From the NCBI GenBank assembly GCA_018813065.1, contig JAHJCH010000171.1, positions 871 through 64,870 on the forward strand: a stretch of DNA of 64,000 nt, given 5' to 3'. Under the pieces are notes generated by a model that made no database searches, had not been told where the DNA came from, and saw only the letters and a list, made by a program, of their open reading frames with translations. The position numbers and the translations under genes are program-made. The DNA comes from Myxococcota bacterium. Its GTDB lineage: Bacteria > Myxococcota_A > Bradymonadia > UBA7976 > UBA1532. Below, piece by piece: positions 8,060 to 40,630 of this stretch (position 1 is its first letter; each line of letters begins with the position of its first letter).

Positions 8060-9645
8060 CGCGCCCTGCCCTGGGCTATAGCCTGCGCTGCATGAACAGC
8101 ATCGCTTGTGCGCTGACGATCGCGCTCAGCCTGGCCCTCATCGCCTGCGGCGCGCCCCCCAAGGGCCCCTCCCCGGCGCTGATGCGCGCCTTCGGCCAAG
8201 CGGGCTTAGCGGCGACGGCGGGCCGCCTGGATCAAGCCGCCGCGCTCTACGATCAGGCCACGCGCGTCTCGCCCACGGCGGTGGAGGCTTGGCTGGCGGC
8301 GGCGGAGGTCTACGCCCTGCTGGATCGCTGGGTGGAGGCGCGCGCCCGCGCTGAGCAGGCGCGTCGGCTTGAGGGGGAGACGCCCAGGGTCGTTCAAGCC
8401 CTGGGCGCCGCGCTGCGCCGCCTGGACGCGGAGGAGGAGGCCGTGGCCCTCTATGAGCGCGCGATCCAGACTCACCCCGATGATCCCCTGGCCTGGGAGG
8501 CCCTGGGCGCGCTGGCGCTCAAGCGCGAGGCCTGGGAGGAGGCGGCGCGCATCTTCGCTCGCTTGACGCAGATCACCCCCCATCAAGCCACCTATTGGCT
8601 CCAACGCGCCGAGGTGGATTTGCAGCGCTACCAGCTCCTCAGCGCCGCCGAGGCCTTTGAGCGCGCGCTCAACCTCGACCCCGACTATCACGCCCTCAAC
8701 CACCGCGTCCTCGCCATCGGGCTACAGATGGGCGATCTCACCATGGCGCGCCGGGCCATGCACCGCCTCCAGCCCAACCCGCTCATCGCCGATCTGACCC
8801 TGGCGGGGCTCCTCCTCAAGCGCGGCGATCCCCTGGAGGCCTACAACGCCCTTGAGGCCCACCTCAATGACTGGCCGGAGCACCACAGCGCGCGGCTCAA
8901 TCAAGCGCGCGTCTTGGCGCGGATCGGTCAAGACGAGGAGGCCATCGCGCTGTTGGCGGAGATCCCCAAGGGGGCGCCGCAGCGCGCCCAAGCGCAGCGA
9001 TTGATCGTGGAGCTTCAGCTGCGCGGCGGCGAGGTCGAGGACGCCCTGGCCCTGATCGAGCGGGCGCGGGCGCGCCGCGATGGGCTGGACTGGGCGCGCC
9101 TGCACGCCCAAGCCCTGATGGCCTCGGGGCGCCTTGAGGCGGCCGAGGGGGTCATCGAGGCGGGGCTTGAGCGCTGGCCGACGCGCGCGGACTTCCACCT
9201 CCTGCGCGCCCAGCTCGCCCAACGGCACGGCGATCAAGCCTCGGCGCTGGAGCGGATGCACGCCGTGCTGGAGATCCACCCCAATCACCCCCAGGCCCTC
9301 AGCTACATCAGCGGGATCTGGGTGGAGGCGGGGGTCAACCTCGACGAGGCCGAGCGGATGATCCGCGCCGCGCTGCGCCAAGCCCCCGAGGACCCTGCGA
9401 TCAATGACACCCTGGGGCGGCTCCTCTTTCGCCAGCGGCGGCTCAAGGAGGCGGCGGAGGTCTTGCGCTTCGCGCTCTCTCACGCGCCGGGGGAGGTCAA
9501 CATCATCGCCCACCTCGCCGAGGTGCTGTGGGCCTCGGGGCAGGGCGATGAGGCTCGCCGCTACCTGAGCCGGGCGCTGCACCTGGCAGATGATCAAGAG
9601 ACGCGGCGCGCCATCGAGGCGCGCCTGAAGAGGCTTACACCATGA
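8056..9645 (+). CDS. TPR-repeat lipoprotein
   Basis: Lipobox LALIACG after a hydrophobic leader. Multiple 34-residue TPR-like repeats (AWLAAAEVYALLDRW..., ALGAALRRLDAEEEAVALYERAIQTHPDD...). TTG start overlaps the upstream stop. Confidence 0.7.
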   Translation: MTRPALGYSLRCMNSIACALTIALSLALIACGAPPKGPSPALMRAFGQAGLAATAGRLDQAAALYDQATRVSPTAVEAWLAAAEVYALLDRWVEARARAEQARRLEGETPRVVQALGAALRRLDAEEEAVALYERAIQTHPDDPLAWEALGALALKREAWEEAARIFARLTQITPHQATYWLQRAEVDLQRYQLLSAAEAFERALNLDPDYHALNHRVLAIGLQMGDLTMARRAMHRLQPNPLIADLTLAGLLLKRGDPLEAYNALEAHLNDWPEHHSARLNQARVLARIGQDEEAIALLAEIPKGAPQRAQAQRLIVELQLRGGEVEDALALIERARARRDGLDWARLHAQALMASGRLEAAEGVIEAGLERWPTRADFHLLRAQLAQRHGDQASALERMHAVLEIHPNHPQALSYISGIWVEAGVNLDEAERMIRAALRQAPEDPAINDTLGRLLFRQRRLKEAAEVLRFALSHAPGEVNIIAHLAEVLWASGQGDEARRYLSRALHLADDQETRRAIEARLKRLTP

Positions 9646-10409
9646 GACGCGCGCTGCTGCTCCTCTCCGCCACGCTGGCGGCCTGCTCTGGGGGGCAGCC
9701 GCGCCCCGATGACTTCCAAGCCGATCCCGCCGCGCACCTCCAGCGGCTTGACGCGCGCGCCGCGCAGATACGCAGCCTCACGGCGGATCTGGCGGTGGAG
9801 TACAAGGAGGACGGGGAGCGCGTGCGCTTGACAGAGATGATCGCGCTCAAGGCCCCCGATCACCTGCGGGTGGACCTGATCTCGCCCTTCGGTCAGCCGC
9901 TCTTGACCCTGGTCAGCGACGGCCAGACGCTGTCGATCTATGATCAGCGCGCGCGCCGCTTCTACCGAGGGCGCTCCAGCCCCCAAGCGTTGGGCAAGCT
10001 CTTGCCGCTGCGGCTGACGCCAGAGGAGCTGGTGGCCTTGATGCGCGGCGGGGTGCCGATCATCTCCCACGCGCGGGGCGAGGTCACCTGGGACGGGGCG
10101 GTGGGGCGGACGCTGCTCCGCCTTGAGGGCGCCGAGGGCTGCGCGCTGGGCGCCTGCCAGACCATCGCCTTTGAGCCAGAGCGCCATCGCGTCACCGCGC
10201 TCCACGTCACCCAAGCCGGTCAAGCGCGCTACAGCGCGCGGATGGGCGACTATCAAGGCGGCGACGCCCTCCCACGGCGGATGCGCTTTGAGGGCGAGGG
10301 GATCGTGGTGGACGTGGAGATCAAGGAGGCGCGGATCAACCCCACGCTGCCAGACGCCGCCTTTGCCCTTGAGCCCCCCAGGGGCATCACGGTTGAGCCG
10401 CTTGAGTGA
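9642..10409 (+). CDS. lipoprotein, LolB/LolA-like fold (DUF4292-like)
   Basis: Signal peptide plus lipobox LAACSG. Translationally coupled to the TPR lipoprotein, an arrangement common for DUF4292 proteins. No catalytic motif. Confidence 0.4.
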   Translation: MRRALLLLSATLAACSGGQPRPDDFQADPAAHLQRLDARAAQIRSLTADLAVEYKEDGERVRLTEMIALKAPDHLRVDLISPFGQPLLTLVSDGQTLSIYDQRARRFYRGRSSPQALGKLLPLRLTPEELVALMRGGVPIISHARGEVTWDGAVGRTLLRLEGAEGCALGACQTIAFEPERHRVTALHVTQAGQARYSARMGDYQGGDALPRRMRFEGEGIVVDVEIKEARINPTLPDAAFALEPPRGITVEPLE

Positions 10410-10472
10410 ACCTATTGCGTGATCATCGGCTCCTTTTCTGATAGATGGGGCTCCTTTTAAGAGGAGCCGCCC

Positions 10473-11345
10473 TTGCTGATCGATCTACACACCGCCGTCA
10501 ACGCCCACAGCCCCGCCGATCTCGCCGTCGCTGTCGCCCAAGCGGGCCTGGGCGGCGCGGTCCTCGTCGATACCCATCAAGCCCACCGGCTGCCCGCCTA
10601 CAAGGCGGCGCTGGAGGCCGCCGGGCTGCTGGCCTTCGTCGGCGTCAAGCTCCAGCTTGAGCGTGGCGATCTCCTCCTCATCCCCAGCGACGCCTCGGCC
10701 TCCGCGTTCACGCGCGGCTGGGCGCCCCCCAACGGCTACACCTGGCCCATCGCCGAGGCGCTCAAGGCCATCGAGGGCTTCGACGGCGCGGTCATCGCCA
10801 GCCACCCCTACTACCGCGACGGCGTCGATCCGCTGGGGGATCGGATCTACGCCATCAAGCATATCCACGCCGTGGAGTGTACCTACGGCGAGGGCGTGAC
10901 GCGCTGGGACGCCTTGGCGCGGGAGGCCTGCCAGCTGCGCGGCTATACGGAGATCGCCAGCTCGGGCGGCGAGGCGCGGCGGCTGGGGCTGGCGGCGATG
11001 GTCTTCGCCGATCAGGTCGAAGGCCAAGCGGATCTGGTCAAGGCGCTGACCACCCAGGCGTGCTGGCCGGTGGAGTTCGAGGCCAGGGGCGCCGCCCGCG
11101 CCCGCCCAGAGCTGGAGGCCCCGCCGCCGCCGCGCGTGAGGGACGAAGGCGAGGACGATGACCGAGGCGAGCGCCGCCCGCGCCGCGACGATGACCGAGG
11201 TGAGCGCCGCCCGCGCCGCGACGATGACCGAGGCGAGCGCCGCCCGCGCCGCGACGATGACCGAGGCGGGCGTGGCGAGCGTCGCCCGCGCCGCGATGAT
11301 GACCGCAGCGCGCAAGGCCCACGTCGCCCGCGCCGCGACGCCTAA
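10473..11345 (+). CDS. PHP-domain-like protein with C-terminal highly charged DDDRGERRPRR tandem repeats
   Basis: N-terminus LIDLHTAVNAHSPADL resembles a PHP phosphoesterase start. The last 70 aa are encoded by about 4.5 copies of a 36-bp repeat. Confidence 0.45.
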   Translation: MLIDLHTAVNAHSPADLAVAVAQAGLGGAVLVDTHQAHRLPAYKAALEAAGLLAFVGVKLQLERGDLLLIPSDASASAFTRGWAPPNGYTWPIAEALKAIEGFDGAVIASHPYYRDGVDPLGDRIYAIKHIHAVECTYGEGVTRWDALAREACQLRGYTEIASSGGEARRLGLAAMVFADQVEGQADLVKALTTQACWPVEFEARGAARARPELEAPPPPRVRDEGEDDDRGERRPRRDDDRGERRPRRDDDRGERRPRRDDDRGGRGERRPRRDDDRSAQGPRRPRRDA

Positions 11346-11387
11346 CCCCACACCCTCGCCGCGCCCTCACGCCAAGAACCGACGACC

Positions 11388-13274
11388 ATGCACACCCACG
11401 ATCCCCTCAAAGAGAACCGCACTCCGCGCTATGGTGAGCTGAATCGGGCGGACTACGCCGCCTTGGGGCTTATGGTGGGCCTTGAGGTCCACCAGCAGCT
11501 CAAGACCACACGCAAGCTCTTTTGCCGTTGCCCTGCCGGTCACCGATTTAACAGTCACGACGCCGAGATACTCCGTCATATGCGCCCCACGCTCTCTGAG
11601 ATGGGCGAGTACGACGGCACCGCCTTGATGGAGTTTAAGACCCGCAAGGAGATCATCTATCGCATCCGACGCGAGACGGTCTGCACCTATGAGATGGACG
11701 ACGCGCCGCCCTTTGAGATCGATGATGACGCCCTCGATGTGGCCCTACAGATCTCCGCGCTCTTGGGGCTGCGCCTGGTAGACGAGCTGCACATCGCCCG
11801 CAAGCAGTACCTCGACGGCAGCATCCCGGCGGGCTTTCAGCGCACAGGCATCCTGGGCATCGACGGCGCGATCCCCTTCAAAGAGGGCCGCGTCGGCGTG
11901 CGCCAGCTCAGCATCGAGGAGGACTCCTGCCGCGAGGTCAGCGACGAGGGCCATACGCGGATCTATCGCGCGGATCGGCTGGGGACGCCGCTGATCGAGG
12001 TCGTCACCGAGCCGGATATGCGCACCCCCCAGGACGGCGCGGCGGTCGCCCAGCTGATCCGCGATCTGGTGCGGGCGACGGGGCGAGTGCGCACCCACGC
12101 TGGCGGCGCGCGCCAGGACGTCAACGTCAGCGTGCGGGGCGGGGTGCGCAATGAGATCAAGGGGGTGGACAGCTACAAGCTGATGCCTGAGCTGATCCAC
12201 AACGAGGCGCTGCGCCAAGCCAACCTGCTGCACGTCCGTTCGCTGCTCCAGGCGCGAGGCGCCATCGCCCCGACCGCGCCGGGGGTGGAGGTCACCGCGC
12301 AGCTGCGTCAGACGCCATGCGACTTCTTGCGCGAGGCCATCCACGGCGGCGCGGCGGTCCACGCCGTGGCCTTGCCAGGCTTCGAGGGGTTGCTCAGCCA
12401 CCCGATCCAGCCGGGCGTGACCTTCCTCAAGGAGATCGCCGACCGGGTGCGCGTCATCGCCTGCCTGGATCACCGCCCCAACCTGATCTGCTCAGAGGAC
12501 AGCGGCCCCAACATCAGCTCGGGCGAGTGGGGGCGGGTGCGCCGGGCGCTGGGGGCCAAGCGCGCTGAGCCGATTTTGCTCGTCTGGGGGCCGGAGCGCG
12601 ACTGCCGCACGGCCACGCAGGAGGTCCTCAACCGCGCGGCGGAGGCGCTCATCGGCGTGCCCTCGGAGACGCGACAGGCCTTCGCCGACGGCACCACGGG
12701 CTTTGAGCGCATCCTGCCAGGCCCCGAGCGGATGTACCCCGACACCGACTTGCCGCCGATCACGATCACGCCAGCGCGGATAGCCCGGCTCAAGGCGGGC
12801 CTGCCTGAGCCGCCCTGGGCGCGGCGCGAGCGGCTCTTGAGCGTCGGCGTGGGCCTCGATCTCGCCGAGCGGCTGATCCGCCACGCCGCCTATGACCTCT
12901 TCTGGGCGCTCTACGATGAGCGGGGCGAGGCGATCAGCGCCCAGGGCTTAGCCTCCTTGCTCCTGGATCGCCGCTGCGACAACCCCGCCGAGATCAGCGC
13001 CTTGAGCTGGTGGCGCGCCCAACTCGACGCGCTGCAAGCGGGGCGGATCATCCCCGAGGCGCTGTGGATGAAGGGCGAGGTGTCGCCCGAGGCGCTCGAC
13101 GAGGCCGCCGCGCGAGATCTCTTCGAGGCGCTGCTGGGCTCGGCGCCAGCGCCCCTCAACCTGGAGGCTGAGGAGGCCGCCTTGATGGGCGCCTTGATGA
13201 ACAGCCCGCTGCGTGGCCGCGCCCGTGGCCGCCTGATCCGACAATGGCTCCGCCAAGCCCTTGAGGCCCGATAA
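11388..13274 (+). CDS. gatE: archaeal-type glutamyl-tRNA(Gln) amidotransferase subunit E (GatE)-like
   Basis: GLEVHQQLKTTRKLFCRCP N-terminal signature and GARQDVNVSV...EIKGV cradle motif of the GatB/GatE family. It lacks the GatB CPVC zinc motif. The 628-aa length fits the GatE insertion architecture. Directly followed by a GatD-like gene. Confidence 0.6.
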   Translation: MHTHDPLKENRTPRYGELNRADYAALGLMVGLEVHQQLKTTRKLFCRCPAGHRFNSHDAEILRHMRPTLSEMGEYDGTALMEFKTRKEIIYRIRRETVCTYEMDDAPPFEIDDDALDVALQISALLGLRLVDELHIARKQYLDGSIPAGFQRTGILGIDGAIPFKEGRVGVRQLSIEEDSCREVSDEGHTRIYRADRLGTPLIEVVTEPDMRTPQDGAAVAQLIRDLVRATGRVRTHAGGARQDVNVSVRGGVRNEIKGVDSYKLMPELIHNEALRQANLLHVRSLLQARGAIAPTAPGVEVTAQLRQTPCDFLREAIHGGAAVHAVALPGFEGLLSHPIQPGVTFLKEIADRVRVIACLDHRPNLICSEDSGPNISSGEWGRVRRALGAKRAEPILLVWGPERDCRTATQEVLNRAAEALIGVPSETRQAFADGTTGFERILPGPERMYPDTDLPPITITPARIARLKAGLPEPPWARRERLLSVGVGLDLAERLIRHAAYDLFWALYDERGEAISAQGLASLLLDRRCDNPAEISALSWWRAQLDALQAGRIIPEALWMKGEVSPEALDEAAARDLFEALLGSAPAPLNLEAEEAALMGALMNSPLRGRARGRLIRQWLRQALEAR

Positions 13275-14656
13275 TGAGCGACGATTACAAAGGCTACCGA
13301 GGCGCCACCTTGGAGGCGCTGCGCCGCTTTGAGGCGCGGGTCTGGAGCGAGGTGCGGGTGGAGACGGAGGCGGGGGCCTTTGAGGGGCTGATCCTGCCGC
13401 GCAGCGAGACGGCCGACGCCGATCACCTCGTGCTCAAGCTGATCTCGGGCTACAACGTGGGGGTCCACCACGCCCGGATACTCAACATCGAGGTGAGGGG
13501 CCGCAAGGTCGCCGACTACAAGATCCCCGAGAAAGAGTTCCCCAAGGACGCGGGCAAGCCTCGGGTCAAGCTCTTTGGCACGGGTGGCACCATCGCCAGC
13601 CGGCTGGACTACCGCACGGGGGCGGTGATCCCCGCCTTCTCGCCGGGCGAGCTTTACGGCTCGGTCCCTGAGCTTGCGGACGTCTGCAACCTGGAGACAG
13701 AGAAGCTCTACGGGGTGTTCAGCGAGAACATGGGGCCAGCGGAGTGGCAGGGGACGGCGCGGGCCATCGCCCAAGCGATCAAGGAGGGCGTCGATGGCGT
13801 GGTCATTGGCCACGGCACAGACACGATGCACCACACCGCCGCCGTGCTCTCCTTTATGCTCCAAGACAGCCCCGTGCCCATCGTCATGGTGGGCAGCCAG
13901 CGCTCCAGCGACCGCCCCTCCAGCGACGCGGCGTTAAACCTGATCAACGCCGTGCGCGTGGCGGGGCACAGCGACATCGCCGAGATCATGGTCTGCATGT
14001 TTGGCCCCACCAGCGACCGCTACGATCTGCTCCATCGTGGCACGCGGGTGCGCAAGATGCACTCCAGCTACCGCTCGACCTTCAGGACCATTGGAGACAT
14101 CCCATTGGGGCGTGTAGACGCCGACGGCGTCCAGGCGTTCCGTCAGGACTATAAGCGGCGTCGATCAGACAGAGAGGTCAAGCTCAACACCGCCTTCGAT
14201 GATCGTGTCAGCATCGTTTACTACTACCCCAATATGAAGCCGGACATCATCGACAGCCTGATCGAGCAGGGATACAAGGGGATTGTTATCGCCGGGACGG
14301 GCTTAGGTCACGTCAACAAGCCGCTCTATCCGGCCTTGGCGCGGGCGCGAGCGGCGGGCGTGGCCGTCTACATGACGGTGCAGACGCTATGGGGCTATGT
14401 GCAGATGTATGTGTATGAGACGGGCCGTGAGCTGATGGACTTGGGCGTGGTGCCCTGCGCGAACATGTTGCCCGAGGTGGCCTACGTCAAGCTGGGCTGG
14501 GCGCTGGGACAATCTCAGGATCTGGAGGAGGTCAAGCGCATCATGTTAACCCCCATCGCCAGCGAGATCACCCCTCGTGAGCCACACGACGGCTACCTTG
14601 TCTTTCAAGGCGGCGTCCCTGAAGTCAATCGGTTTATCTCTCATCACTGGAAGTGA
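13274..14656 (+). CDS. gatD: glutamyl-tRNA(Gln) amidotransferase subunit D (GatD)-like: asparaginase-type domain with N-terminal extension
   Basis: L-asparaginase motifs KLFGTGGTIAS and VIGHGTDTM. An about 90-aa N-terminal extra domain, as in GatD. Start overlaps the gatE stop (ATGA). Confidence 0.65.
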   Translation: MSDDYKGYRGATLEALRRFEARVWSEVRVETEAGAFEGLILPRSETADADHLVLKLISGYNVGVHHARILNIEVRGRKVADYKIPEKEFPKDAGKPRVKLFGTGGTIASRLDYRTGAVIPAFSPGELYGSVPELADVCNLETEKLYGVFSENMGPAEWQGTARAIAQAIKEGVDGVVIGHGTDTMHHTAAVLSFMLQDSPVPIVMVGSQRSSDRPSSDAALNLINAVRVAGHSDIAEIMVCMFGPTSDRYDLLHRGTRVRKMHSSYRSTFRTIGDIPLGRVDADGVQAFRQDYKRRRSDREVKLNTAFDDRVSIVYYYPNMKPDIIDSLIEQGYKGIVIAGTGLGHVNKPLYPALARARAAGVAVYMTVQTLWGYVQMYVYETGRELMDLGVVPCANMLPEVAYVKLGWALGQSQDLEEVKRIMLTPIASEITPREPHDGYLVFQGGVPEVNRFISHHWK

Positions 14657-14688
14657 GCGGCGCGTGATGCGTCAAGGTCATCGACCTT

Positions 14689-16044
14689 TTACTTCTTCTC
14701 TGCGTTAAAAGCATACCAATCGATCCGCCGCGTCGCGTACATCACCCCGGACAAGATGCCTGAGAGCCCCAAGGCCCCCAAGAGGAGCGAGTGACTCTCC
14801 GAGCGCAACAAGACATACAGGAAGCCATAGAGTCCGAGGAGAAAGCCGCCCATCAATAAGGCCTTGCGACGCTGACCCAGCACCGCCGCGCTGTAACCGG
14901 AGATCAACAGCGTCGAGGACAGCGTGGCGATCAGATAAGCGACACCAAAGGCCATATGCTCCGAGAGCGCCAGCAGGTTGAGGTAGAAGAGCGCCACAGC
15001 GAAGCCCACCAATGTGTACTGCAAGGGGTGAATCCGCAGCCGCCCAAAAAGCTCAAAGAGGAAGAACACCAGGAACGTGAGAAAGATAAACAAAAACGAA
15101 TACTTAATCGATCGCGTGCTCTGCTGATAGGCGCTGGTGGGGAACATCAGCTCCACGCCAAAGCCGCCGCCCATCAGCTGACTGTTGAGGCCATGCTCAG
15201 AGCGCCACTGCTGAGGATAGCCGCGCGCCAACTCCAGCACCGTCCAGGCCGCCGTAAACCCCTCGGCGCTGATCTCACGCCGCGTCGGCAGGTAGGCGCC
15301 GTTAAAGCTCGGCGTCGCCCAGGGCGACTTCAGCTCGACGCGTGTCTCACGACCATGCGGCAGCAGGTGGAGCTGCTCGCTGCCCGTCAAGCGCAGATCA
15401 AAGCTGAAGTCTGTGTGCGAGCGCCCCGCGATCTCCGCGATCCCCTCGGGCTTGAGCTGCAAGACGCTGTGAAGCCCCGGGATGGTCTTGACCACCGGCC
15501 CAAGCGCCGTCTCCGGCCCCTCCCCCCAGCGGATCATCGGCGTCTCACGGATTCCAATCGGGTGTGTGATCGGCAAGGAGAGGAAGGCTTGCTCCCAGAT
15601 GATGTCCTCTGGCGCCACGTCCAGCGCCTCAAACTTGGGGGCCAGGAAGCGGCCGCTGAGCTTGAGCTTGGCCGCATAGACGAGCACCTTGAAGATCCCG
15701 CGATAGCGCACCTCTGGGCTCAGCTCGCCGCTGATGTTGAGGCTGTCGGGGAGGAAGTGAGCCTGCTTGATGCTCACCGTATCCTCCTGGCGGGTCGTGC
15801 CATCGTCAAACCTCAGTGTGCGGTAGCTGTGCTCGCGATAAGGCACCGTCAGGAGCAGCCCGCCGATGATCTGTTGACCGCCCATCGTGGCGCTGATCTC
15901 ATTAAAGACTTGGTATTGCTGGCTCATCCGCTCATTGATCAAGCCGCTGATCATCTCCGTGGGGATGAGCAACAGCAGCAGCAGGAAGCCGATCGTGATG
16001 ATCTTGAAGGTGAGGGAGTTCTTTACGCGCTGGGCGAGGCTCAT
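14689..16044 (-). CDS. creD: CreD family inner membrane protein
   Basis: N-terminal TM plus LLIPTEMISGLINER motif characteristic of CreD. Large periplasmic region followed by a C-terminal cluster of TM helices. 451 aa. Confidence 0.7.
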   Translation of the reverse strand: MSLAQRVKNSLTFKIITIGFLLLLLLIPTEMISGLINERMSQQYQVFNEISATMGGQQIIGGLLLTVPYREHSYRTLRFDDGTTRQEDTVSIKQAHFLPDSLNISGELSPEVRYRGIFKVLVYAAKLKLSGRFLAPKFEALDVAPEDIIWEQAFLSLPITHPIGIRETPMIRWGEGPETALGPVVKTIPGLHSVLQLKPEGIAEIAGRSHTDFSFDLRLTGSEQLHLLPHGRETRVELKSPWATPSFNGAYLPTRREISAEGFTAAWTVLELARGYPQQWRSEHGLNSQLMGGGFGVELMFPTSAYQQSTRSIKYSFLFIFLTFLVFFLFELFGRLRIHPLQYTLVGFAVALFYLNLLALSEHMAFGVAYLIATLSSTLLISGYSAAVLGQRRKALLMGGFLLGLYGFLYVLLRSESHSLLLGALGLSGILSGVMYATRRIDWYAFNAEKK

Positions 16045-16158: not shown

Positions 16159-19100
16159 TCAGTCCTGGGTGACGTGGAGGCGGAAGGCGCCGTGATAGGG
16201 GCCTTCAACGCTGGGCTGCTCAACCAGATCGGCCATCAACGCGGGCAGCAGCTGGGCGGGGGTCAGCGCGGAGACGACGGTGTAGATCGTCAGCGGGAGG
16301 TGGACGCCCTGGGCGAGGATCTCCACCTCATCAAAGCCGTCGCGGATGTTGTAGCGGATCTGGCCCAGCTCGCTGATCTGGCTGGGCACCATGAAGTGCA
16401 GCGCGGGGACATCGCGCGTGGGGCCGTCATGGGTCTGGACATAGGGAAAGGCCGCCAGCGGCGTGACGTGCTCGCCACGGATGACCCGCGTCACCGCGCC
16501 TGAGCCGAGGTTGCCCAGCAGGCGCGCCGTGACCGGGCGCGGGTCATTGGGCTGCTCGGGCCTCAGCTGTATCCGCCAGACCTGTGGATGGGGGAAGTCG
16601 CTGTGGGCGCTGAAGCGATAGTCGCCCGCCGCGCCGCTGATCTCGCCGTCCTCGGGCAGATCCAGCGCGCCAGAGACGTGGCCGTCATAGATCACGCTGA
16701 TGTCGCCGTAGCAATCAAAGGCATCGCCGCCGTCATTGTTCCAGCCATTGCAGCCCTCAAAGTCATGTCGGATCTCCACGGGCTGAATAGGCGGCTCGTT
16801 GCCCTCGGGGATCAACACCGGCTCCTCGGGGAGCGTGATCGCCTCATTAAGGCTCGTCAACGCCAACGGCGCCCCGCCATCGACGAAGATGAAGTACTCG
16901 CCGGGCTCGATCTCGGCGCTGATCTCCTCACCGGCGACGTGTGTGCAGCCCAGCGTGGTGGCGCCGGACTCGCAGTCGGCGCGCACGGAGAGGATCGCGG
17001 GGTGATCGGTGCCCTCAGCGTCCAGCCAGACCCGCAGCGTGCCTGACTCTGCGGCCACATAGCGATAGACCCGCTCAGGCTGACCGCCGCCGCCACAGCT
17101 GGCCTCATATTGATCCGCGTCCCCCTCGGCGGTCTGGCCCTCGACCCTGTCGCTGCGCAGCGTCTCCACCGTCACGCCCTCGCGGCAGAGGCTCTCCTCA
17201 GTGAGATCACCCGGCGCCAAGCAGCCTGGATCGGCGGGATAGTCGGTCAGCCCGTCGCCGTCATCATCGATCCCGTTGACGCAGGCGGGCGTCTGGGGTG
17301 GATCAGCCTCGTCATCATCCTCGCCGCTGCCGCAGCCCAGATCATCGAGGTCGATGAGCCCATCCCAGTCATTGTCCACGCCGTCGGCGCAGCGAGGCAG
17401 GACAGGGCCGGGGTTGGTCTCATTGGTATCGGCGGCATAAGCGCAGCCCGGATCATCGGGGAAGTCCGTGCGACCGTCGCGATCATCATCGCGCTCATTG
17501 GCGCAGATGGGCCGCCCTGGCGCGTCGGCCTCATCGGGATCGGCGGCGTAGGTGCAGCCTGGATCAAACGGGAAGTCCACGCGCCCATCCTCGTCATTAT
17601 CCTCGCCGTCGCCGCAGGCGGGCAGGATCGCGGGGTCCACCTCGCTGGCGTGGCCCGCCGCGAAGCAGCCTGGATCCCAGGGGAAGTCGATCCGGCCATC
17701 GCCGTCATTGTCCTCGCCGTCGCTGCACGCGGTCACGGCCTCGCCCTCGCCGCGATCACCCATGCCCGCGCAGCCTGGATCAAACGGGAAATCGATCAGC
17801 CCATCGCGATCATCATCGAGGCGGTTGCTGCACTCGGGGGTTGGGCGGCGATCGATCTCGTCATCATCGGCGGCGGCGAAGCAGCCTGGATCCCAAGGGA
17901 AATCGATCAGGCCGTCGGCGTCATCATCGAGGCCGTTGAGGCAGGCGGGCGGCGCCTCTGGATCAGCTTCGTCATCATCGCCCAGCGTCTCGCAGCCCGG
18001 ATCGGCGGGGTAGTCAATGCGCCCATCCTCGTCATCATCGCGACCGTTGCTGCACGCCACCTCGACGCCCGTCTCATCGCCCTCATCCTCATCCTCTCGT
18101 GAGGCGCAGCCCGGATCATCGCCGTCGATGGCGCCATCGCGGTCATTATCGAGGCCATCATCGCAGCCTGGATCGAGGCGCTCGACCTCCACCGTGAGCT
18201 TGAAGGGGCCGCCGGTGCCCACGCTGGTATCGACGAAGATCCAGTAATCGCCCACCGCCGCCTGCTCCAGCGTAAAGCGACCGTTGGTGCTGCCCGCCCG
18301 AGAGCCATCATCGCAGCGCAGCTCGCTTTGAGCGTCATCGCAGGCGCGGCGGATATAGAGCGTGGTGGGGGTCGTCGTCTCTGGATGAGCGGTGTTAAAG
18401 GTCAGCCGGGCGTTATAGGGGTTGTGATAGTAATAAATCACCTCAGGCTTAGAACGCCCACCGCAGCTGCCCTCATGAGCATCGGTCGCGCCCTGAGTCA
18501 CCTTCGTCTCCCCATAAACCGCCTCATCATCGAAGAAATACTCGTGAAAGGCCACGCCATCACCGCAGGCGTCCAGCTCGGAGGTAGAAGCGGCGCTGAG
18601 GCAGCCAGGATCGAGCGGATAATCCACGCGCCCGTCGCCGTCATCATCCTCATCATTGGCGCAGGCGGGCGTGGGGCTGGGTGTGCGCTCATCGCGATCG
18701 CGTGGGGACTCACAGCCAGGATCGGTGGGATAATCGACGCGCCCATCCTCATCATCATCACGGCGGTTGAGGCACTCCGCCAAGGGCACCTCGGTGACGG
18801 TCAGCTCGACGGGCCCGCCGATCCCGGCCACGCCATCGATGAAGATGTAATAGTCATCTGGGGCCAGATCAGCCACCTGCAAAACGTGGCCGGGCACGAG
18901 GGGCGCTTGATCCTCACGCTGGCAGGCCACCTCGGCGCGGGTGGAGAGGCAATGGACCCGGCGGAGGTAGAGCGTGGTGGGCACATCTGTCTCGCCGATC
19001 GTGCTGATCTCAAGGCGCTCAACGGCGCGGGTGAGGCGATAGAGCACCGCCACCTCGGGGCTGCCTCGCCCGCCGCAGCTGCCATTGGTATTAAAGACCC

Positions 19101-20010
19101 CTCGGGCGGTATCGAGCCGGATCGGCTCACCGTCAAAGACGCGCGGGGGATCATAGACATCGCCGCAGGCGCCGCGCTCGCTGAAGTCCGAGGCCGCCGC
19201 GCAGCCGTCATCATCGGGATAATCGATCTTGCCATCGCGGTCATTATCGAGGCCGTCAAAACACTCAGGCTTAACGCCCTTGTCCAGCTCCTCGCGATCC
19301 CCTGCCCCTGCGCAGCCGGGATCATCGGGATAATCGATCAGCCCATCGCCGTCATCATCGAGGCCGTTGATGCACTCTGGCGGCCTGGGTGGGTCCTCCT
19401 CGCTGGTGTCCCCTGCGGCGCTGCACCCTGGATCGAGGGGGAAGTCCACGACGCCGTCCTCATCATTATCGATGGCGTCGAGGCAAGCGGGCGGGTTGTC
19501 CTCATCCTCATCGCCCTCCTCGGCGTCGGCCACCGAGCTGCACCCTGGATCGATCTCATCGATGGCGCCGTCGCGGTCATTATCGAGGCCGTCATTACAC
19601 TGCGGCGTGACAGGGGGGTTGAACTCATCCTCATCGACGCTCGACGCGCAGCCGGGATCATCGGGGAAGTCGGTGAGATCATCGAAATCGTTATCGATCC
19701 CGTCATTACACTGAGGCGGCTCGCCCTCGTCCGTGTCCTCGCCATCAACGCAGCCTGGATCTTGGAGATCGATGAGGCCGTCGCCGTCATTATCCCGCAG
19801 ATCGCGACAAGCGGGCGCGGGCGCCTCGCTGCCAGCCTCGCCCGCTTGACCGGCGTCGCCGCCACCGCCTGTGAGGCCTACACCGCCACCGCCACCACCG
19901 CCGCCGACGAGGACATCCGCCTCGGCGTCGGGGGCTGAGCCCTCGTCGCTGTCACAGCCCAAGAAGAACAGGGCCGAGAGGGCGATGACCCCAAACCAAC
20001 GCAGCTCCAT
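16159..20010 (-). CDS. giant secreted lipoprotein (1283 aa) with about 17 MopE-type C-x-DG-x-DND-x-DG-x-D...DPGC metal/Ca-binding repeats and three PPC-like beta-sandwich domains
   Basis: Lipobox FFLGCDSD. Gly run GGGGGGGGVGLTGGGGDAG. Repeated 35-40-aa units such as PQCNDGIDNDFDDLTDFPDDPGCASS. Three PPC-like inserts (EISTIGETDVPTTLYLRR...DDYYIFIDGVAGIGGPVELTV, and two more). An about 250-aa unique C-terminal domain. Confidence 0.75.
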   Translation of the reverse strand: MELRWFGVIALSALFFLGCDSDEGSAPDAEADVLVGGGGGGGGVGLTGGGGDAGQAGEAGSEAPAPACRDLRDNDGDGLIDLQDPGCVDGEDTDEGEPPQCNDGIDNDFDDLTDFPDDPGCASSVDEDEFNPPVTPQCNDGLDNDRDGAIDEIDPGCSSVADAEEGDEDEDNPPACLDAIDNDEDGVVDFPLDPGCSAAGDTSEEDPPRPPECINGLDDDGDGLIDYPDDPGCAGAGDREELDKGVKPECFDGLDNDRDGKIDYPDDDGCAAASDFSERGACGDVYDPPRVFDGEPIRLDTARGVFNTNGSCGGRGSPEVAVLYRLTRAVERLEISTIGETDVPTTLYLRRVHCLSTRAEVACQREDQAPLVPGHVLQVADLAPDDYYIFIDGVAGIGGPVELTVTEVPLAECLNRRDDDEDGRVDYPTDPGCESPRDRDERTPSPTPACANDEDDDGDGRVDYPLDPGCLSAASTSELDACGDGVAFHEYFFDDEAVYGETKVTQGATDAHEGSCGGRSKPEVIYYYHNPYNARLTFNTAHPETTTPTTLYIRRACDDAQSELRCDDGSRAGSTNGRFTLEQAAVGDYWIFVDTSVGTGGPFKLTVEVERLDPGCDDGLDNDRDGAIDGDDPGCASREDEDEGDETGVEVACSNGRDDDEDGRIDYPADPGCETLGDDDEADPEAPPACLNGLDDDADGLIDFPWDPGCFAAADDDEIDRRPTPECSNRLDDDRDGLIDFPFDPGCAGMGDRGEGEAVTACSDGEDNDGDGRIDFPWDPGCFAAGHASEVDPAILPACGDGEDNDEDGRVDFPFDPGCTYAADPDEADAPGRPICANERDDDRDGRTDFPDDPGCAYAADTNETNPGPVLPRCADGVDNDWDGLIDLDDLGCGSGEDDDEADPPQTPACVNGIDDDGDGLTDYPADPGCLAPGDLTEESLCREGVTVETLRSDRVEGQTAEGDADQYEASCGGGGQPERVYRYVAAESGTLRVWLDAEGTDHPAILSVRADCESGATTLGCTHVAGEEISAEIEPGEYFIFVDGGAPLALTSLNEAITLPEEPVLIPEGNEPPIQPVEIRHDFEGCNGWNNDGGDAFDCYGDISVIYDGHVSGALDLPEDGEISGAAGDYRFSAHSDFPHPQVWRIQLRPEQPNDPRPVTARLLGNLGSGAVTRVIRGEHVTPLAAFPYVQTHDGPTRDVPALHFMVPSQISELGQIRYNIRDGFDEVEILAQGVHLPLTIYTVVSALTPAQLLPALMADLVEQPSVEGPYHGAFRLHVTQD

Positions 20011-21382: not shown

Positions 21383-23170
21383 TTATTTCTTAGTGTCAAC
21401 TTCTCCCTTACCACTGGGCTTAGTGAATGCCTCTGGGCCTCGAATCATGATATAAATCACGTCTCCCATGGCCAGGTACTTGATCGGTCCGGGCTCGGCG
21501 TTTAGTGGAAGAATCTCGCCAGAGATTTTTCCCTTCACAGCGAGTTGATGAACGATGTTATCTCCTGCTTCGTTGTTTAGAATCACTGTTAGTGTGTATC
21601 CATAGGGTTTGTCTTTGGGTTCATCACCAGGCGAAGTGAGCTTCACCAACTCAAAGCGCTGACCACGACGAAGAATAAGCGGCTTGTTCTTGTCGCCAAA
21701 TTCCATCTTGGATTCGATAGCGATTGGGGGAGTGAGAAGCTCGGGCGTTTTGCTGGGGTCGGTCTGCGTGGCCTTGCCCAAAACGAAGTTCAGCACCTTA
21801 ACGAAATTCTCGTGCGCGTAGCGATCCACCTGCACAGAGCGCACGACCCAGGTCGGTGGGCTCTGCGTGGTAATCACCATCTGCGACTCGGCGATTGCCT
21901 TCCTTGTCTTCAGACCTCGTACGCCAATATCCCGCGCCTTGTCCACGAAAGCATTGCTCAGGCGATAGAGTTCAAAGCCGACGGGAACTTCGATGTCACC
22001 CTTCCTTTGCCAGACCATGGAATTCTCGTCGACTTGGTGGTAAGAGCTACTACTTTCATAGTTACCGCTCGCACCAGCCTTGAAAACCCCGAAAACGTTG
22101 GCATTGGCACTGCCGCCAGTTTTCATCGATTCACTGCGTTGCACATCGGATTTTTTTTTCATATCGTCCAAAAAGTTGTTAATTTTACTGGGTTGAAGGC
22201 CATTTTTGGTCAAGTTCTGCGTATCCATCCGGCCCCAAACGTCTTCGTCTTCAAAAAAAATCGTTTCGCCCTTGAAGGCTTCCTGTGTCAGAGCATCGAG
22301 TTGCCTGATGATAGGGTGTGACATGTTGGGGTCGCCCATGATCCGCATTTCTCCCCGAACGTGATTACGTGCGCGGTCGATGATTTCATCAAGCTGCTTG
22401 CGTGTCACGTAGGGCGGTTTTGCTTCTTTAATGTTTCCGGCGATTACTGGACCCTGAACTTCCATTTCATTATGAATTGCCTGGAGAAACTGCGTCTGAA
22501 GTGTAAGGGTCGACTCCCATTCGATGCTTTCTCCGAATACGCGCTGAATGATGCGGAATCGAAGACCACCTTCATCCTGGATCCACTTTATGAACTGCCC
22601 TTTAAGATCCTCGGAAACCAAAGCGTCGATTTCAAGCGTTCTTCCAGAGGGAAAGCGCTCTTCGACAGGTTTAAAACGAATCTCATCTTTAAGGTTTGGC
22701 GTGATGTCTTGGACCTGAACTGATAGGATGTCCGCTGGATTTACGTTAGCTTCGGTGATATTGGGTTTTATCCCGTGGAACCGAAGCTGCTCAGCAATTT
22801 TACTGCGGGTTCCTTGAGGATTTCGAACTAGAGTAAGAACTAGCCTAATTTTACCTGATCCATTTTTATCAAAGGTTGTCTTGACCTCACGGATATCAAC
22901 TTTTCCATTATTATCGAGTGCGAAGTGATACGGTGCGATATAGACCACATTGTCTGGATTGCCGGGCATTTCATAGACCTGGATTTCCAGTCCGTCGATA
23001 CCGACGGTTGCAAGCCATGAACCGACAACACGTGTTTGTGCGGCGAAGTCCTCAATAGGAATTTCATCCTTGGGGGCTCCTTCCTGTGCGCGAAGCGCCG
23101 AACCATCCTGAAAAATGGGGAATGCAAGCGCAAAAGCGCTCAAGTTTTGCCAGAATTGGCTCAGTTTCAT
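21383..23170 (-). CDS. hypothetical secreted protein, no recognisable domain, in low-GC island
   Basis: 595-aa uninterrupted ORF in DNA of about 48-50% GC, against about 70% in flanking DNA. N-terminal signal-peptide-like MKLSQFWQNLSAFALAFPIFQDGSALRA. No known catalytic motif found by eye. Confidence 0.55.
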   Translation of the reverse strand: MKLSQFWQNLSAFALAFPIFQDGSALRAQEGAPKDEIPIEDFAAQTRVVGSWLATVGIDGLEIQVYEMPGNPDNVVYIAPYHFALDNNGKVDIREVKTTFDKNGSGKIRLVLTLVRNPQGTRSKIAEQLRFHGIKPNITEANVNPADILSVQVQDITPNLKDEIRFKPVEERFPSGRTLEIDALVSEDLKGQFIKWIQDEGGLRFRIIQRVFGESIEWESTLTLQTQFLQAIHNEMEVQGPVIAGNIKEAKPPYVTRKQLDEIIDRARNHVRGEMRIMGDPNMSHPIIRQLDALTQEAFKGETIFFEDEDVWGRMDTQNLTKNGLQPSKINNFLDDMKKKSDVQRSESMKTGGSANANVFGVFKAGASGNYESSSSYHQVDENSMVWQRKGDIEVPVGFELYRLSNAFVDKARDIGVRGLKTRKAIAESQMVITTQSPPTWVVRSVQVDRYAHENFVKVLNFVLGKATQTDPSKTPELLTPPIAIESKMEFGDKNKPLILRRGQRFELVKLTSPGDEPKDKPYGYTLTVILNNEAGDNIVHQLAVKGKISGEILPLNAEPGPIKYLAMGDVIYIMIRGPEAFTKPSGKGEVDTKK

Positions 23171-23638
23171 TGATTAGAGTCCCCTTTCGATTTGAATGTG
23201 CCTTTTAAAGGACCTTAAAAATGGCCCTTCGGTATAAGGAGGATAAGGTAACTATAAAGTCCGCCTTAATCAGTCGATTTTTCAACCCTATCCCCGTCAA
23301 AACTTTTTCTGACGAATCGAAGATAGACTTCCCTACTCCCCACTTCAAGCAAAACTCTCGGCCGTGCAGTACTTTGCCATCAACAAACACAATGGATGCG
23401 TCTGCGCAATCGCGGACACAATCATCAACAGTCCGGTCACTTTTTGTAAGCCCTTGAAACTAAAGGTTTCTCATTTCGAGTGAACACGATGGCCATTCTA
23501 ATGATTTCAAGGGGTTACGCGAAGAGGCTGCCCTTGACCCAAAAAAGTGACCGGAGTATTGAACCAGAGCAGTTGGCCAGCCGGAGCAACTGGCCTCCAT
23601 GTGCTCTTTTGGGGCGCCATCTATCCCCGCTGTGGGTG

Positions 23639-24061
23639 CTACTCAGCGCAGGTGTACTCGAAGCGCTGGCTGAGGGCGGGGGACTCACCATCGCTCAACA
23701 GGAAGTCATAACGATCAATCTGTTTGACACGGCCCTCATCGTCATAAGCGATCTCGGTCTTCCTCACGGGTGAGTCTTGATTGAGGAGGTCGAGATCGTA
23801 CTCCTCAAGGATCTCCAACTTGCGGTTCTGATCGTAGCGCATCTGGTAGATCATCGTCGGCTCGTCCGTCCCGTGGGTGGCAAGGTTGTAGCGCTCGCTG
23901 CGACACGCGCCAAAGGCGGCCCCCGCCGAGGACTCGGCGAGCAGCACCTTGAGGCGCGTGACCTCCAGGCGCAGATCGTTGATCTCATTGCTGGACGCCG
24001 TGCCTTGGCCGACGCAGCCCGCCGCGAGCATCAATGGGAGGAGCAGTGTAAGTGATCGCAT
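23639..24061 (-). CDS. small lipoprotein, unknown function
   Basis: Signal peptide plus lipobox LMLAAGC. 140 aa. Lies between the island ORF and the kinase genes. Confidence 0.45.
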   Translation of the reverse strand: MRSLTLLLPLMLAAGCVGQGTASSNEINDLRLEVTRLKVLLAESSAGAAFGACRSERYNLATHGTDEPTMIYQMRYDQNRKLEILEEYDLDLLNQDSPVRKTEIAYDDEGRVKQIDRYDFLLSDGESPALSQRFEYTCAE

Positions 24062-24171
24062 CGGCCCTCACTTGTGGTGTGTTTACGCTGAAAGCCCGCG
24101 GATTATCCGAGGTGCGTCTATCTAACACATGGCGAGGTCTCTCGCTATTTTTTTTAACGGGTTCGCTCGGA

Positions 24172-25173
24172 TCAACTCGCGCCGTATAAATCCGGGCACA
24201 GCTCACGCATATACGTCTCCAGCATCATGATTGTTGGACCATAACCTTTGCGATAAATGTGATACTCAAGGGCCATCGCCAGCTCATCGGTGCTCTCATA
24301 GCGATTTTTAGGGTCTTTATCGAGCATACGAGAGAGCAGCTTGCGCAGACGACGAGAGACAAACTTCGGGAGGGCATCCCAGTCTACCCAGCCCTGAGAT
24401 GCAGCCACAAGCGGGCTTCTAAACCACGGTTTGCGCGCACGTTGCATCGCGAGTAGCTCGAAAAGAACTAATCCAAGCGAGTATTGATCTGATCTATGAT
24501 CTAATACCTGCCCTTTTGCTTGCTCAGGTGACATATAGGCGACTTTGCCCCAGGGCCAACCATTCTCAGATTTAATAAGCATACGATTTGCTGCGGTCGC
24601 GATACCAAAATCACCCAGTTTAGGTAGGCCTTCTGTTGTGATAAGCGTATTATTCGGGCATACATCACGATGTACAATCTTTAGTGATTCACCTTGCGCG
24701 TTGCGCCTCGAATGTGCATGAGCAAGCCCTCTCGCGATTCGACTTACAATAAAGACCGCGAGTTCTTCTCCTAAATGTTTATCTTTGTGTCTTTGGATAA
24801 ATTCAGCGAGAGATAGCCCATGTACATATTCCATCACAATGTAATAGCCGCCCTGGTATCGATTGAGCTGGTATATCTGGATGATATTTTCATGGACAAG
24901 GTTTGCGACTAATTTTGCTTCTGTAACAAATAGAGATACAAAGACTTGGTCATCAGATAGCTTTGGTAAGAGCTGCTTAATGGCAACACGCTTCTCGAAG
25001 CCATTTGCGCCGCAGTGTATTGCTTCGCATACCGTGCCCATACCACCTTGCGCTATTTTTCTGACAATACGATAAGCGCTTTTTTCATTTATCTCACTTT
25101 TAAATTGATGAGATATGTCTTTTAGCTCCGGTGGATTCTGTTCATTTGGGCTCATTGATGACTTATTCTTCAC
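24172..25173 (-). CDS. Ser/Thr protein kinase (Hanks type) with atypical catalytic loop HRDVCPNN
   Basis: Gly loop GGMGTV, VAIK, HRDVCPNN (canonical is HRDLKPxN), DFG, SPE motifs. 333 aa. Reduced GC (about 50%). 11-bp overlap with the upstream kinase gene. Confidence 0.7.
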   Translation of the reverse strand: MKNKSSMSPNEQNPPELKDISHQFKSEINEKSAYRIVRKIAQGGMGTVCEAIHCGANGFEKRVAIKQLLPKLSDDQVFVSLFVTEAKLVANLVHENIIQIYQLNRYQGGYYIVMEYVHGLSLAEFIQRHKDKHLGEELAVFIVSRIARGLAHAHSRRNAQGESLKIVHRDVCPNNTLITTEGLPKLGDFGIATAANRMLIKSENGWPWGKVAYMSPEQAKGQVLDHRSDQYSLGLVLFELLAMQRARKPWFRSPLVAASQGWVDWDALPKFVSRRLRKLLSRMLDKDPKNRYESTDELAMALEYHIYRKGYGPTIMMLETYMRELCPDLYGAS

Positions 25174-26368
25174 TCGATGTGGTCATTTTTACTTTTACAG
25201 GCACTTCTTGTTTGTTTAACTCGTCTTTTTGGGCCATTTTGTAGTTGAAGAATAAAACAATGATTGCAATCAACGCGATCAGAATGACCGCGATGATCTT
25301 AATTCTTAAAAGACGCGATTTCTTCTTGTTCTTTTGGATCAAGAACATAATTGACTCTTGATCAAGGGGCGCGTCGGTCTTCTCTCCTCGCCCAAAGCGC
25401 GCGCCGTCCTCTTGAACCGTGTCGCTCAGCTCATCCACAGGCGGCGGCGTCGGTGGCTTGGGGCGCCGGCTCAGCGCGGCGTTGACCTCGGCGATGGCCT
25501 GGGAGTCTTGGATGATCCGATCGATGGCCTCAAGCATCTCCTTGGCGGTCGGGTAGCGATCATCGGGGTTCACCGCGCAGGCCTTCTTGATCACCTTGCC
25601 CAGCTTGGTCTTGCTCAGCGCCCGGTCGATGGGGATCGGCCTCTGCTTGGCGTCGTAGACGACGATGGGGTTGGGATCGGCGAAGACGCGCTCGCGGATC
25701 AGCGACTCAAGCAGGACGACGCCGATGGCGTAGACGTCGCTCTCGGGGCGAGGCTCGATGAAGTCCTTAAACTGCTCCAGGCCCATGTAGGCAGGGGTGC
25801 CCAAGGCCACGCCGCCCTTGGTGATGTTGTCATAGCCCGTGTCGCGCAGGGCTTCTTGTACCCCGGCGATGCCAAAGTCGAAGACCTTGGCGTTCCGCCG
25901 CACCCCGCTGCCCGAGATCATGATGTTTTGAGGCTTGAGGTCACGGTGGACGATCCCATGGCCGTGGGCCTCGGCGACGGCCTCCAGCACCTGGGAGATC
26001 AAGCGCAGGACCTCCTCGACGCTGAGCGCCTCTTGGCCGAGGAGGATCGACAGCTCTTGGCCCTCGATCAGCTCCAAGGCCATCCAAGGGCCCTCATCAT
26101 AGCCCGCGTCCAGCAGCCCCACGACGTAGGAGCTGCGCAGCTTGCCCAAGAGCGCCATCTCACGCAGGAAGCGCTGCTCTTGCTCCGCCTCGAAGCCCTC
26201 ATAGTCCACATCCGGTAGCGATAGCCGCTTGATCGCCACGATCTGGTTGGTGGATCGCTGCCTGGCCCGATAGACCGCGCCAAACCCGCCTCGGCCCAGC
26301 TCATCCAAGAGCTCATAGCGGTCATTGAGGAGGGCGCGGAGGTTTTCAAGGCTTTCGGGTGCGCTCAT
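25163..26368 (-). CDS. Ser/Thr protein kinase with C-terminal transmembrane anchor
   Basis: GRGGFGAVY, AIK, HRDLKPQNIMI, DFG, and a C-terminal TM helix IIAVILIALIAIIVLFF. Start taken at MSAPESLENL; the ORF track extends to 26455. The last about 70 codons are AT-rich. Confidence 0.7.
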   Translation of the reverse strand: MSAPESLENLRALLNDRYELLDELGRGGFGAVYRARQRSTNQIVAIKRLSLPDVDYEGFEAEQEQRFLREMALLGKLRSSYVVGLLDAGYDEGPWMALELIEGQELSILLGQEALSVEEVLRLISQVLEAVAEAHGHGIVHRDLKPQNIMISGSGVRRNAKVFDFGIAGVQEALRDTGYDNITKGGVALGTPAYMGLEQFKDFIEPRPESDVYAIGVVLLESLIRERVFADPNPIVVYDAKQRPIPIDRALSKTKLGKVIKKACAVNPDDRYPTAKEMLEAIDRIIQDSQAIAEVNAALSRRPKPPTPPPVDELSDTVQEDGARFGRGEKTDAPLDQESIMFLIQKNKKKSRLLRIKIIAVILIALIAIIVLFFNYKMAQKDELNKQEVPVKVKMTTSSEE

Positions 26369-26417
26369 GTCTCGCTCACGGTGATGATCTGCGCGCCAAG
26401 ATAGACCGCCTCGACGC

Positions 26418-33947: not shown

Positions 33948-34302
33948 GGTCGCCCTCCGAGTTGAAAATCCGGGGCCGTTCCTGCAACCTCCGCACCAGC
34001 GCGAAGCTCGACGGATCAGGTTGAACACTTGAGGGGAGGGGGTGGCCCCGAGGGCGAAATCTATGACAGGGCTGTCATACCCGCGCAATCCTTTCATTAT
34101 CAAAAAGACGCGGAGGGTATAAGCGTCCCCACAATCTAGGGAAAAAGGGAAGGCAGGACAAAGAATAAGGGGGCCGAGGCCACCTCAGCCCCAGGTTTTG
34201 CGGCCTTATGCTCGGATTAAATCTTTGTATTTTAAAGCGAATTGATAAAATGGCGCGGCGCCAATCGGCGCGCGACGAAAAAAAGAATAATGCAGCCCGT
34301 CG

Positions 34303-39227: not shown

Positions 39228-40630
<1,403 letters not shown>

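Follow-up and report, generated by a model that had tools for sequence, protein, structure and literature searches.

An archaeal-type GatE-GatD pair in a Myxococcota genome belongs to a large, conserved bacterial GatDE clade

Why does a bacterium carry both genes of an amidotransferase that is taken to be a hallmark of archaea? Since 2000 the literature has treated GatDE as a signature protein of archaea, and models for the evolution of glutamine and asparagine decoding, in which the last universal common ancestor had two amidotransferases and bacteria inherited only GatCAB, rest on its distribution. Papers from 2008 to 2022 describe it as exclusive to archaea or as one of their signature proteins (PMC2330236, PMC2811023, PMC8007984, PMC8762117, PMC9499178). 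The question is raised here by a stretch of 64,000 nucleotides from a Myxococcota bacterium (contig JAHJCH010000171.1, called the window below), in which gatE (11388..13274, + strand, 628 amino acids), encoding the kinase/amidotransferase (tRNA-binding) subunit of GatDE, is followed by gatD (13274..14656, + strand, 460 amino acids), encoding the glutaminase/asparaginase (ammonia-donating) subunit. An earlier note on this DNA had described both open reading frames, and their coordinates, lengths and strand were found to be correct. The TAA stop codon of gatE (13272-13274) and the ATG of gatD (13274-13276) share one base. This TAATG overlap (13272..13276, + strand), read from the sequence, is the classic layout for translational coupling, which is therefore predicted for the two genes. 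The locus probably encodes, at a probability of about 0.7, a functional GatDE-type tRNA-dependent amidotransferase that would convert Glu-tRNA(Gln) to Gln-tRNA(Gln), in a bacterial clade of old archaeal origin.

The larger protein is a GatE. It passes both NCBIfam GatE equivalog models (NF003107, 485.8 bits, cut-off 456; TIGR00134, 421.4 bits, cut-off 319.55) and stays below the cut-off in all six GatB models, with 79-129 bits against cut-offs of 315-680; the best of these scores is 129.3 bits against a cut-off of 338. The Pfam GatB_N match stretches over residues 29-464 for 275 profile positions and must therefore contain a large insertion. The protein consists of a cradle with the Mg2+ ligands H35, E177 and E204, an AspRS-like insertion at about residues 290-420 and a helical and YqeY-like tail at about residues 460-628. 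In a sequence search of the PDB, residues 22-627 align with residues 2-617 of Methanothermobacter thermautotrophicus GatE (2d6f_C, E-value 3e-96) and Pyrococcus abyssi GatE (1zq1_C) matches at 2e-95, with GatB chains at 2e-25 or weaker. An AlphaFold2 model was built from 51 clade sequences (mean predicted local distance difference test score, pLDDT, 82; predicted template modelling score 0.80). A Foldseek search of the PDB with this model puts the GatE chains 1zq1_C and 2d6f_C/D at the top (E-values 4.5e-43 to 1.5e-40), with target-normalised template modelling scores of 0.73-0.78 to the archaeal GatE chains. GatB chains come next at about 1e-22, and weak AspRS matches trail them, consistent with the AspRS-like insertion that is specific to GatE. 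GatE is better matched than GatB by about 20 orders of magnitude in fold and about 70 in sequence.

The insertion and the tail are diverged and both are present. The alignments to 2d6f_C and 1zq1_C traverse the insertion, and the region is modelled at a pLDDT of about 90. The tail keeps the YqeY-type C-terminal signature, aligns to the M. thermautotrophicus protein up to residue 617 of the latter and forms a helical bundle in the model. A Pfam scan of the window protein detected neither GAD nor GatB_Yqey, as the insertion and the tail are too diverged for these two models; the GatB_Yqey tail is detected in the orthologue from locus L087. The tail motif of GatB, KxGKxK, is absent from all 119 GatE sequences of the clade. 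The GxxAxG string found in the tail of M. thermautotrophicus GatE is absent from 111 of the 119, and GxxAxG(x) was dropped as a discriminator since Asgard GatE also lacks it. The N-terminal cysteine motif reads FCRCPAG, and the GatB motif CPVC, which the earlier note had reported missing, is indeed lacking.

The second protein is a GatD. It scores 519.2 bits in NF003217 (cut-off 310) and 518 bits in TIGR02153 (cut-off 324), the two NCBIfam GatD equivalogs, and it also passes TIGR00519, the broad type-I asparaginase subfamily model. Pfam finds GatD_N (PF18195) at residues 23-74, Asparaginase (PF00710) at 97-291 and Asparaginase_C (PF17763) at 311-424. In the PDB search the GatD of P. abyssi matches at an E-value of 6e-127 and that of M. 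thermautotrophicus at 2e-118, and the best stand-alone asparaginase at 4e-42. The motifs that had been quoted from this protein are in place, GTGGTIAS at residues 102-109 and HGTDTM at 180-185. The identification of the two genes made in the earlier note, that is, a GatE and a GatD with an N-terminal domain fused to a type-I asparaginase fold, is thus upheld by profile models, PDB alignments and Foldseek. An archaeal-type pair is present rather than a GatB next to an ordinary asparaginase, and the proteins do not cluster with bacterial GatB or with ordinary asparaginases.

The residues on which the chemistry depends are retained. The Mg2+ site of M. thermautotrophicus GatE (His15, Glu157 and Glu184) was found by mutagenesis to be essential for both kinase and transamidase activity (PMC2330236). 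Its counterparts in the window protein, H35, E177 and E204, are invariant in 119 of 119 clade members, and the Thr nucleophile and Thr-Asp-Lys triad of GatD (T106, T182, D183 and K261) in 120 of 120. Mean pairwise identity within the clade, across phyla, is 82% for GatD and 67% for GatE; GatD is the markedly more conserved of the two, and the values point to strong purifying selection on the bacterial GatDE clade. The catalytic sites are intact, the insertion and the tail retained, the operon coupled and purifying selection strong, all of which argues for a working GatDE. By analogy with the archaeal enzyme, the product of the translationally coupled operon would be a GatDE heterodimer arranged as alpha2-beta2. 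GatE would bind Glu-tRNA(Gln) and phosphorylate the gamma-carboxyl of the tRNA-bound glutamate at the Mg2+/ATP site formed by H35, E177 and E204. GatD would hydrolyse glutamine or asparagine by means of its asparaginase-type Thr nucleophile and triad, and the ammonia would pass through an intramolecular tunnel to GatE, where Gln-tRNA(Gln) would be formed as GatE amidates the activated intermediate. The substrate and the product we infer from the archaeal enzyme. Two joined proteins were considered as Rosetta-stone clues to the substrate, P0242 (943 amino acids, a truncated GatE joined to GatD) and P0393 (606 amino acids, GatD joined to archease). Each may be a genuine fusion or the product of merged gene calls; neither was informative.

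One part of GatE departs from the archaeal pattern. In GatE, a short, conserved and positively charged loop takes the place of the 3(10) turn with which bacterial GatB reads the U1-A72 base pair of the tRNA (PMC2811023). Archaeal GatDE recognises A1-U72 (PMC2330236), and the archaeal loop, which lies beside that pair, has the form (K/R)V(K/R)RGLG (PMC2811023). It reads RVKRGLGT in M. thermautotrophicus, KVKRGLGT in P. abyssi and KVRRGLGV in the Sigynarchaeota sequence. The bacterial clade has VRTG(S/A/P)GA(A/G) instead, and the pattern [GE][LR]VR[TS][GH] is found in 104 of the 119 members. The loop of the window protein, RVRTHAGG, has the archaeal length and does not have the archaeal form; that of a divergent bacterial lineage (L081) reads VRTGYGTA. 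The bacterial tRNA(Gln) has U1-A72 where the archaeal one has A1-U72, and the comparison of the loops suggests that their replacement is most simply an adaptation to the bacterial tRNA.

How widespread is the pair among bacteria? Homology searches with the two proteins gave at least 8000 candidates each, and the best 120 GatE and GatD matches were examined. These have identities of 54-60% for GatE and 76-90% for GatD and come from metagenomes or, where named, from bacterial metagenome-assembled genomes (MAGs) of Krumholzibacteriota, Planctomycetota, Gemmatimonadales or simply 'bacterium', in many cases on contigs of 0.1-3.8 Mb. When one genome per GTDB species was scanned, 562 pattern-matched stretches that encode a GatD relative were returned. 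The best 80 of the 562 are 80 distinct loci with GatD identities of 73-79%, all of them in bacterial MAGs. Their labels include Krumholzibacteriia, Ignavibacteria/Ignavibacteriaceae, Melioribacteraceae, Kapabacteria, KSB1, Calditrichia, Bacteroidota/Cytophagia, Aminicenantes/Acidobacteriota, Desulfaltia and a second Myxococcota; the submitter labels 'Fibrobacteraceae', 'Eubacteriales' and 'Hyphomicrobiales' look unreliable. The pair thus belongs to a large, well-conserved bacterial GatDE clade that spans several phyla and hundreds of MAG species. Wherever a related bacterial locus extends far enough upstream, gatD is directly preceded by gatE. Besides the two genes there is no conserved neighbour (the next commonest cluster is present in 10 of 81 loci), as would be expected for a self-sufficient housekeeping enzyme.

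A second and more divergent bacterial GatD lineage was also observed (L082, 502-3829; L083, 421-3748; L089, 5671-12657); its identity to the GatD of the window is 52% and 38%. AsnA (aspartate-ammonia ligase) is encoded within about 1 kb after the divergent GatD in all three loci, directly after it in L089, where two unrelated genes also lie between gatE and gatD. In the ARAGORN searches, two tRNA-like matches longer than 90 nucleotides were returned, one in L026 (9732-9823; tRNA-Val, aac), in or next to gatE, and one in L035 (5553-5643), for which the program left the anticodon undetermined; both are probably false positives.

The origin of the clade was addressed with GatD, which was searched against 1.84 billion representatives at 50% identity. 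The neighbour-joining tree (133 sequences, 332 columns, 200 bootstraps) contains 120 full-length representatives, eight members of the main clade, including the Ignavibacteria-type P0412 and P0477, the C-terminal GatD half of P0242, two GatD proteins from the PDB and two stand-alone archaeal asparaginases, the outgroup on which it was rooted. Bootstrap support for the main bacterial clade is 87%. The lineages whose context is demonstrably bacterial (the main clade, P0241, P0242 and P0243/P0280) form one group in 97%; P0241, at 61% identity, lies near genes for a lipopolysaccharide heptosyltransferase and a ZnuA ABC system and a transfer-messenger RNA (tmRNA), and P0243/P0280 near genes for type IX secretion-tail proteins. 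In 84% of the 200 bootstraps this bacterial group is sister to a group of four sequences that contains the Sigynarchaeota (Asgard) protein P0246, and the gatE-gatD arrangement of the Sigynarchaeota contig L088 is the same as in bacteria. The named sequences elsewhere in the tree are from Thermococcus, Pyrococcus, Methanothermobacter, Desulfurococcaceae and Ranarchaeia. For the three groupings that were examined, the asparaginase outgroup attaches beside these groups in 0, 0 and 1 of the 200 replicates (at most 0.5%). Since bacterial GatD is nested in archaeal GatD, the tree indicates an old archaea-to-bacteria transfer, with Asgard archaea as the nearest named relatives, after which the genes would have been maintained within bacteria. 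A tree of GatE plus GatD from 49 loci groups largely by lineage (KSB1; Aminicenantes-type; Ignavibacteria/Kapabacteria/Melioribacter) and places the window copy with Krumholzibacteriia and the other Myxococcota copy, which fits long residence with occasional cross-phylum transfer. Horizontal acquisition, which the earlier note had proposed, is supported as far as the archaeal origin is concerned, and neither a recent event nor one specific to this genome is indicated. The pair is no peculiarity of this genome and no recent acquisition: it is one member of a large bacterial clade, and its GC content matches the surroundings.

Could the identification or the assembly mislead? A long bacterial GatB next to an ordinary type-I asparaginase is highly improbable. 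GatB and GatE share the cradle, the asparaginase fold is common to both kinds of protein and GatD does pass TIGR00519. However, the GatB models stay far below their cut-offs, archaeal GatE is by far the better match and GatD_N is present. It is just as improbable that an archaeal fragment was joined to bacterial DNA, or binned with it. All carriers are MAGs, a general point in favour of such an artefact, but bacterial hallmark genes lie on both sides of the pair within the 64 kb and the GC content of gatE-gatD (0.69-0.70) equals that of the neighbourhood and is uniform across the junctions. An identical GatD in the same gene context has been assembled in the Myxococcota MAG assemblies GCA_018820805.1 and GCA_018824465.1 and in one SRA assembly, and because the same locus occurs in independent assemblies it is not a chimera. 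Orthologues are found on bacterial contigs of 1-3.8 Mb, among them CAXXKE010000005.1 (Krumholzibacteriia, 1.24 Mb) and the contigs of 3.2-3.8 Mb that carry P0477. L081 adjoins a bacterial tmRNA, and identity between the window proteins and the archaeal ones with which they were compared is no higher than 34-52%. A decaying, non-functional relic of the transfer is very unlikely too, if slightly less so. Nothing specific speaks for it. Against it stand two intact reading frames, catalytic residues that are invariant in about 120 sampled members, 67-82% identity across phyla and a conserved operon.

The most serious competitor, which we consider unlikely although well ahead of these three, is that the enzyme performs the same chemistry in another job. 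GatDE would be kept beside GlnRS and/or GatCAB for another mischarged tRNA, such as Asp-tRNA(Asn) or a tRNA(Gln) isoacceptor, or for a conditional or non-translational tRNA-dependent amidation. The clade-wide replacement of the archaeal first-base-pair loop, the diverged tail and the failure of the Pfam models GAD and GatB_Yqey to detect their domains in the window protein speak for it, and so does the AsnA gene near the divergent GatD lineage in all three loci, a hint at asparagine metabolism. Carrier phyla are also reported to have GlnRS and often gatCAB. In a 2014 survey nearly all delta-proteobacteria and Bacteroidetes have GlnRS, and Ignavibacterium album has GlnRS and gatCAB (PMC3927822). 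On the other side, no accessory gene is conserved beside the pair and the GatE-specific insertion is retained, which in archaeal GatE is held to fit the non-discriminating GluRS and to exclude the non-discriminating AspRS (PMC2943598). Should the hosts of GatDE also have GlnRS, they would not need GatDE to make Gln-tRNA(Gln), and a specialised or altered role becomes attractive. A little more speculatively still, bacterial GatDE might then be a distinct, bacteria-adapted lineage that coexists with GlnRS and/or GatCAB in many genomes of the FCB (Fibrobacteres-Chlorobi-Bacteroidetes) group, Acidobacteriota and Myxococcota, its role lying in a changed tRNA specificity, at which the altered first-base-pair loop hints, a dedicated isoacceptor or a conditional asparagine/glutamine-linked route, and not in simply replacing the canonical pathway.

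Several observations weigh against the reading of the pair as a Gln-tRNA(Gln)-forming GatDE of old archaeal origin. GatE does not have the archaeal first-base-pair loop, and its sequence conservation is lowest in the tail (residues about 560-628), so that the tRNA specificity may differ. No tRNA(Gln) gene was found near any of 89 loci or in the window. The presence of GlnRS in the surveyed phyla (PMC3927822) could make GatDE redundant there and would weaken the housekeeping interpretation; this is an argument at the level of phyla, and none of the surveyed genomes is a confirmed GatDE carrier. Every named member of the clade is a MAG. A cultured or RefSeq-named carrier was not found in a search with the GatD of an 'Ignavibacterium sp.' or among ten clusters looked up; the names were those of MAGs, and neither I. 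album nor M. roseus was among them. As to the origin, the phylogeny is a neighbour-joining tree of GatD, and the Asgard label of the sister group comes from one named sequence. The GatE of the window is 34% identical to that of Sigynarchaeota, 35% to that of M. thermautotrophicus and 38% to that of P. abyssi, and these archaeal proteins are 40-54% identical among themselves; the sequence identities point to a long bacterial stem and to no special Asgard affinity.

The bacterial GatDE can be set beside four known systems. With archaeal GatDE (M. thermautotrophicus, 2D6F; P. abyssi, 1ZQ1) it shares both subunits with the same domain order and length, identical GatE Mg2+ ligands, the GatD Thr nucleophile and Thr-Asp-Lys triad and, in the Asgard contig, the gatE-gatD adjacency. 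It differs in its bacterial host, in sequence (GatE 34-38% and GatD about 46-52% identical) and in the loop, which has VRT(G/H) instead of (K/R)V(K/R)RG. Bacterial GatCAB carries out the same overall reaction, and GatE and GatB are paralogues that share the cradle and the YqeY-type tail (PMC2330236). The pair, however, has no GatA-type amidase and no GatC, its ammonia donor is a protein of the asparaginase fold, and its GatE fails the GatB models, lacks the KxGKxK tail and has an insertion domain that is absent from GatB. Residues 93-436 of GatD share the fold and the catalytic residues of stand-alone type-I L-asparaginases (T. kodakarensis 5OT0, E. coli AnsA), whereas GatD_N and the partner GatE set the protein apart, and archaeal GatD is the better match by about 85 orders of magnitude in E-value. 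A precedent for an archaeal-signature, tRNA-dependent amino-acid conversion in uncultured bacteria is given by SepRS/SepCysS, an indirect aminoacylation route also regarded as archaeal before it was found in bacteria (PMC8762117); it uses other enzymes and concerns another amino acid.

The rest of the window is that of a bacterium, as the earlier note had held. RpoD, a sigma-70 factor (32451-34103), and two LolA-like proteins, one encoded upstream of the pair (9642-10409) and one downstream (58154-58963), are on the same contig, as are DapF (27619-28395) and CreD (14689-16044), the first gene downstream of gatD and convergent with it. The other upstream genes encode an NRPS-like (non-ribosomal peptide synthetase-like) reductase, TehA, a PP2C phosphatase, a LarA-like protein and a TPR lipoprotein; further downstream are genes for a glycosyltransferase, PknB-like kinases, HydE/F/G, an [FeFe] hydrogenase with NuoE/F-like subunits and sensor kinases. 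Essentially every sizeable open reading frame of the 64 kb has been annotated, and none encodes GatCAB, GlnRS, GluRS or AsnRS. Scans of the whole window gave no Rfam match and no tRNA gene, and the promoter scan found no sigma-70-like match near the pair. Between the convergent gatD and creD a weak terminator-like hairpin with a T-rich tail is found (14674..14688, + strand). It is the one consensus match in a terminator scan of 10300-15000, and since the shuffled region gives 1.6 +/- 1.7 matches it is no more than is expected by chance.

Some further features of the window may be mentioned. An open reading frame of 290 amino acids (10473-11345, + strand) precedes gatE, with its end 42 nucleotides away. 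Neither Pfam nor NCBIfam gives a match to the protein, which has five tandem RRPRRDDDRGE-like repeats as its C-terminus; the arrangement is kept in both sister MAG contigs but not conserved beside gatED in other lineages. A protein of 1283 amino acids (16159-20010, - strand) with a signal-peptide-like N-terminus and many Cys/Asp-rich repeats (C.DG.DND.DG..D..DPGC) has no Pfam match. The stretch 21383-26455 has a GC content of 0.50-0.52, against 0.65-0.71 elsewhere, and may be a foreign island; it contains an open reading frame of 595 amino acids with no family match and two adjacent genes for PknB-like Ser/Thr kinases. A hydrogenase cluster (38031-50751, - strand) includes the HydF, HydG and HydE maturases, with an aspartate ammonia-lyase gene among them, a sensor kinase with an [FeFe]-hydrogenase-like N-terminal domain (44598-46592) and, in a bifurcating-type layout (46592-50751), the large subunit of an [FeFe] hydrogenase and its NuoF-like and NuoE-like partners.

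What is new here is the recognition and interpretation of bacterial GatDE. The detection itself is not new, since annotation pipelines name the genes correctly and identical proteins are already in NCBI as GatE and GatD [Myxococcota bacterium]. A description of a bacterial GatDE clade was not found in the full-text literature; subscription-only papers were outside this search, so a prior description is possible. GatE and GatD are not restricted to Archaea, as the window is bacterial and the best 80 of the 562 stretches are all from bacterial MAGs, and with a conserved clade in hundreds of bacterial species the premise that GatDE is archaea-only falls away. Bacterial GatDE would also be a natural experiment in which a tRNA-recognition enzyme has been refitted to the tRNA(Gln) of the other domain, with U1-A72 in place of A1-U72. 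It will be interesting to see whether these bacteria use GatDE instead of, or besides, GlnRS and GatCAB, a question that can now be tested.

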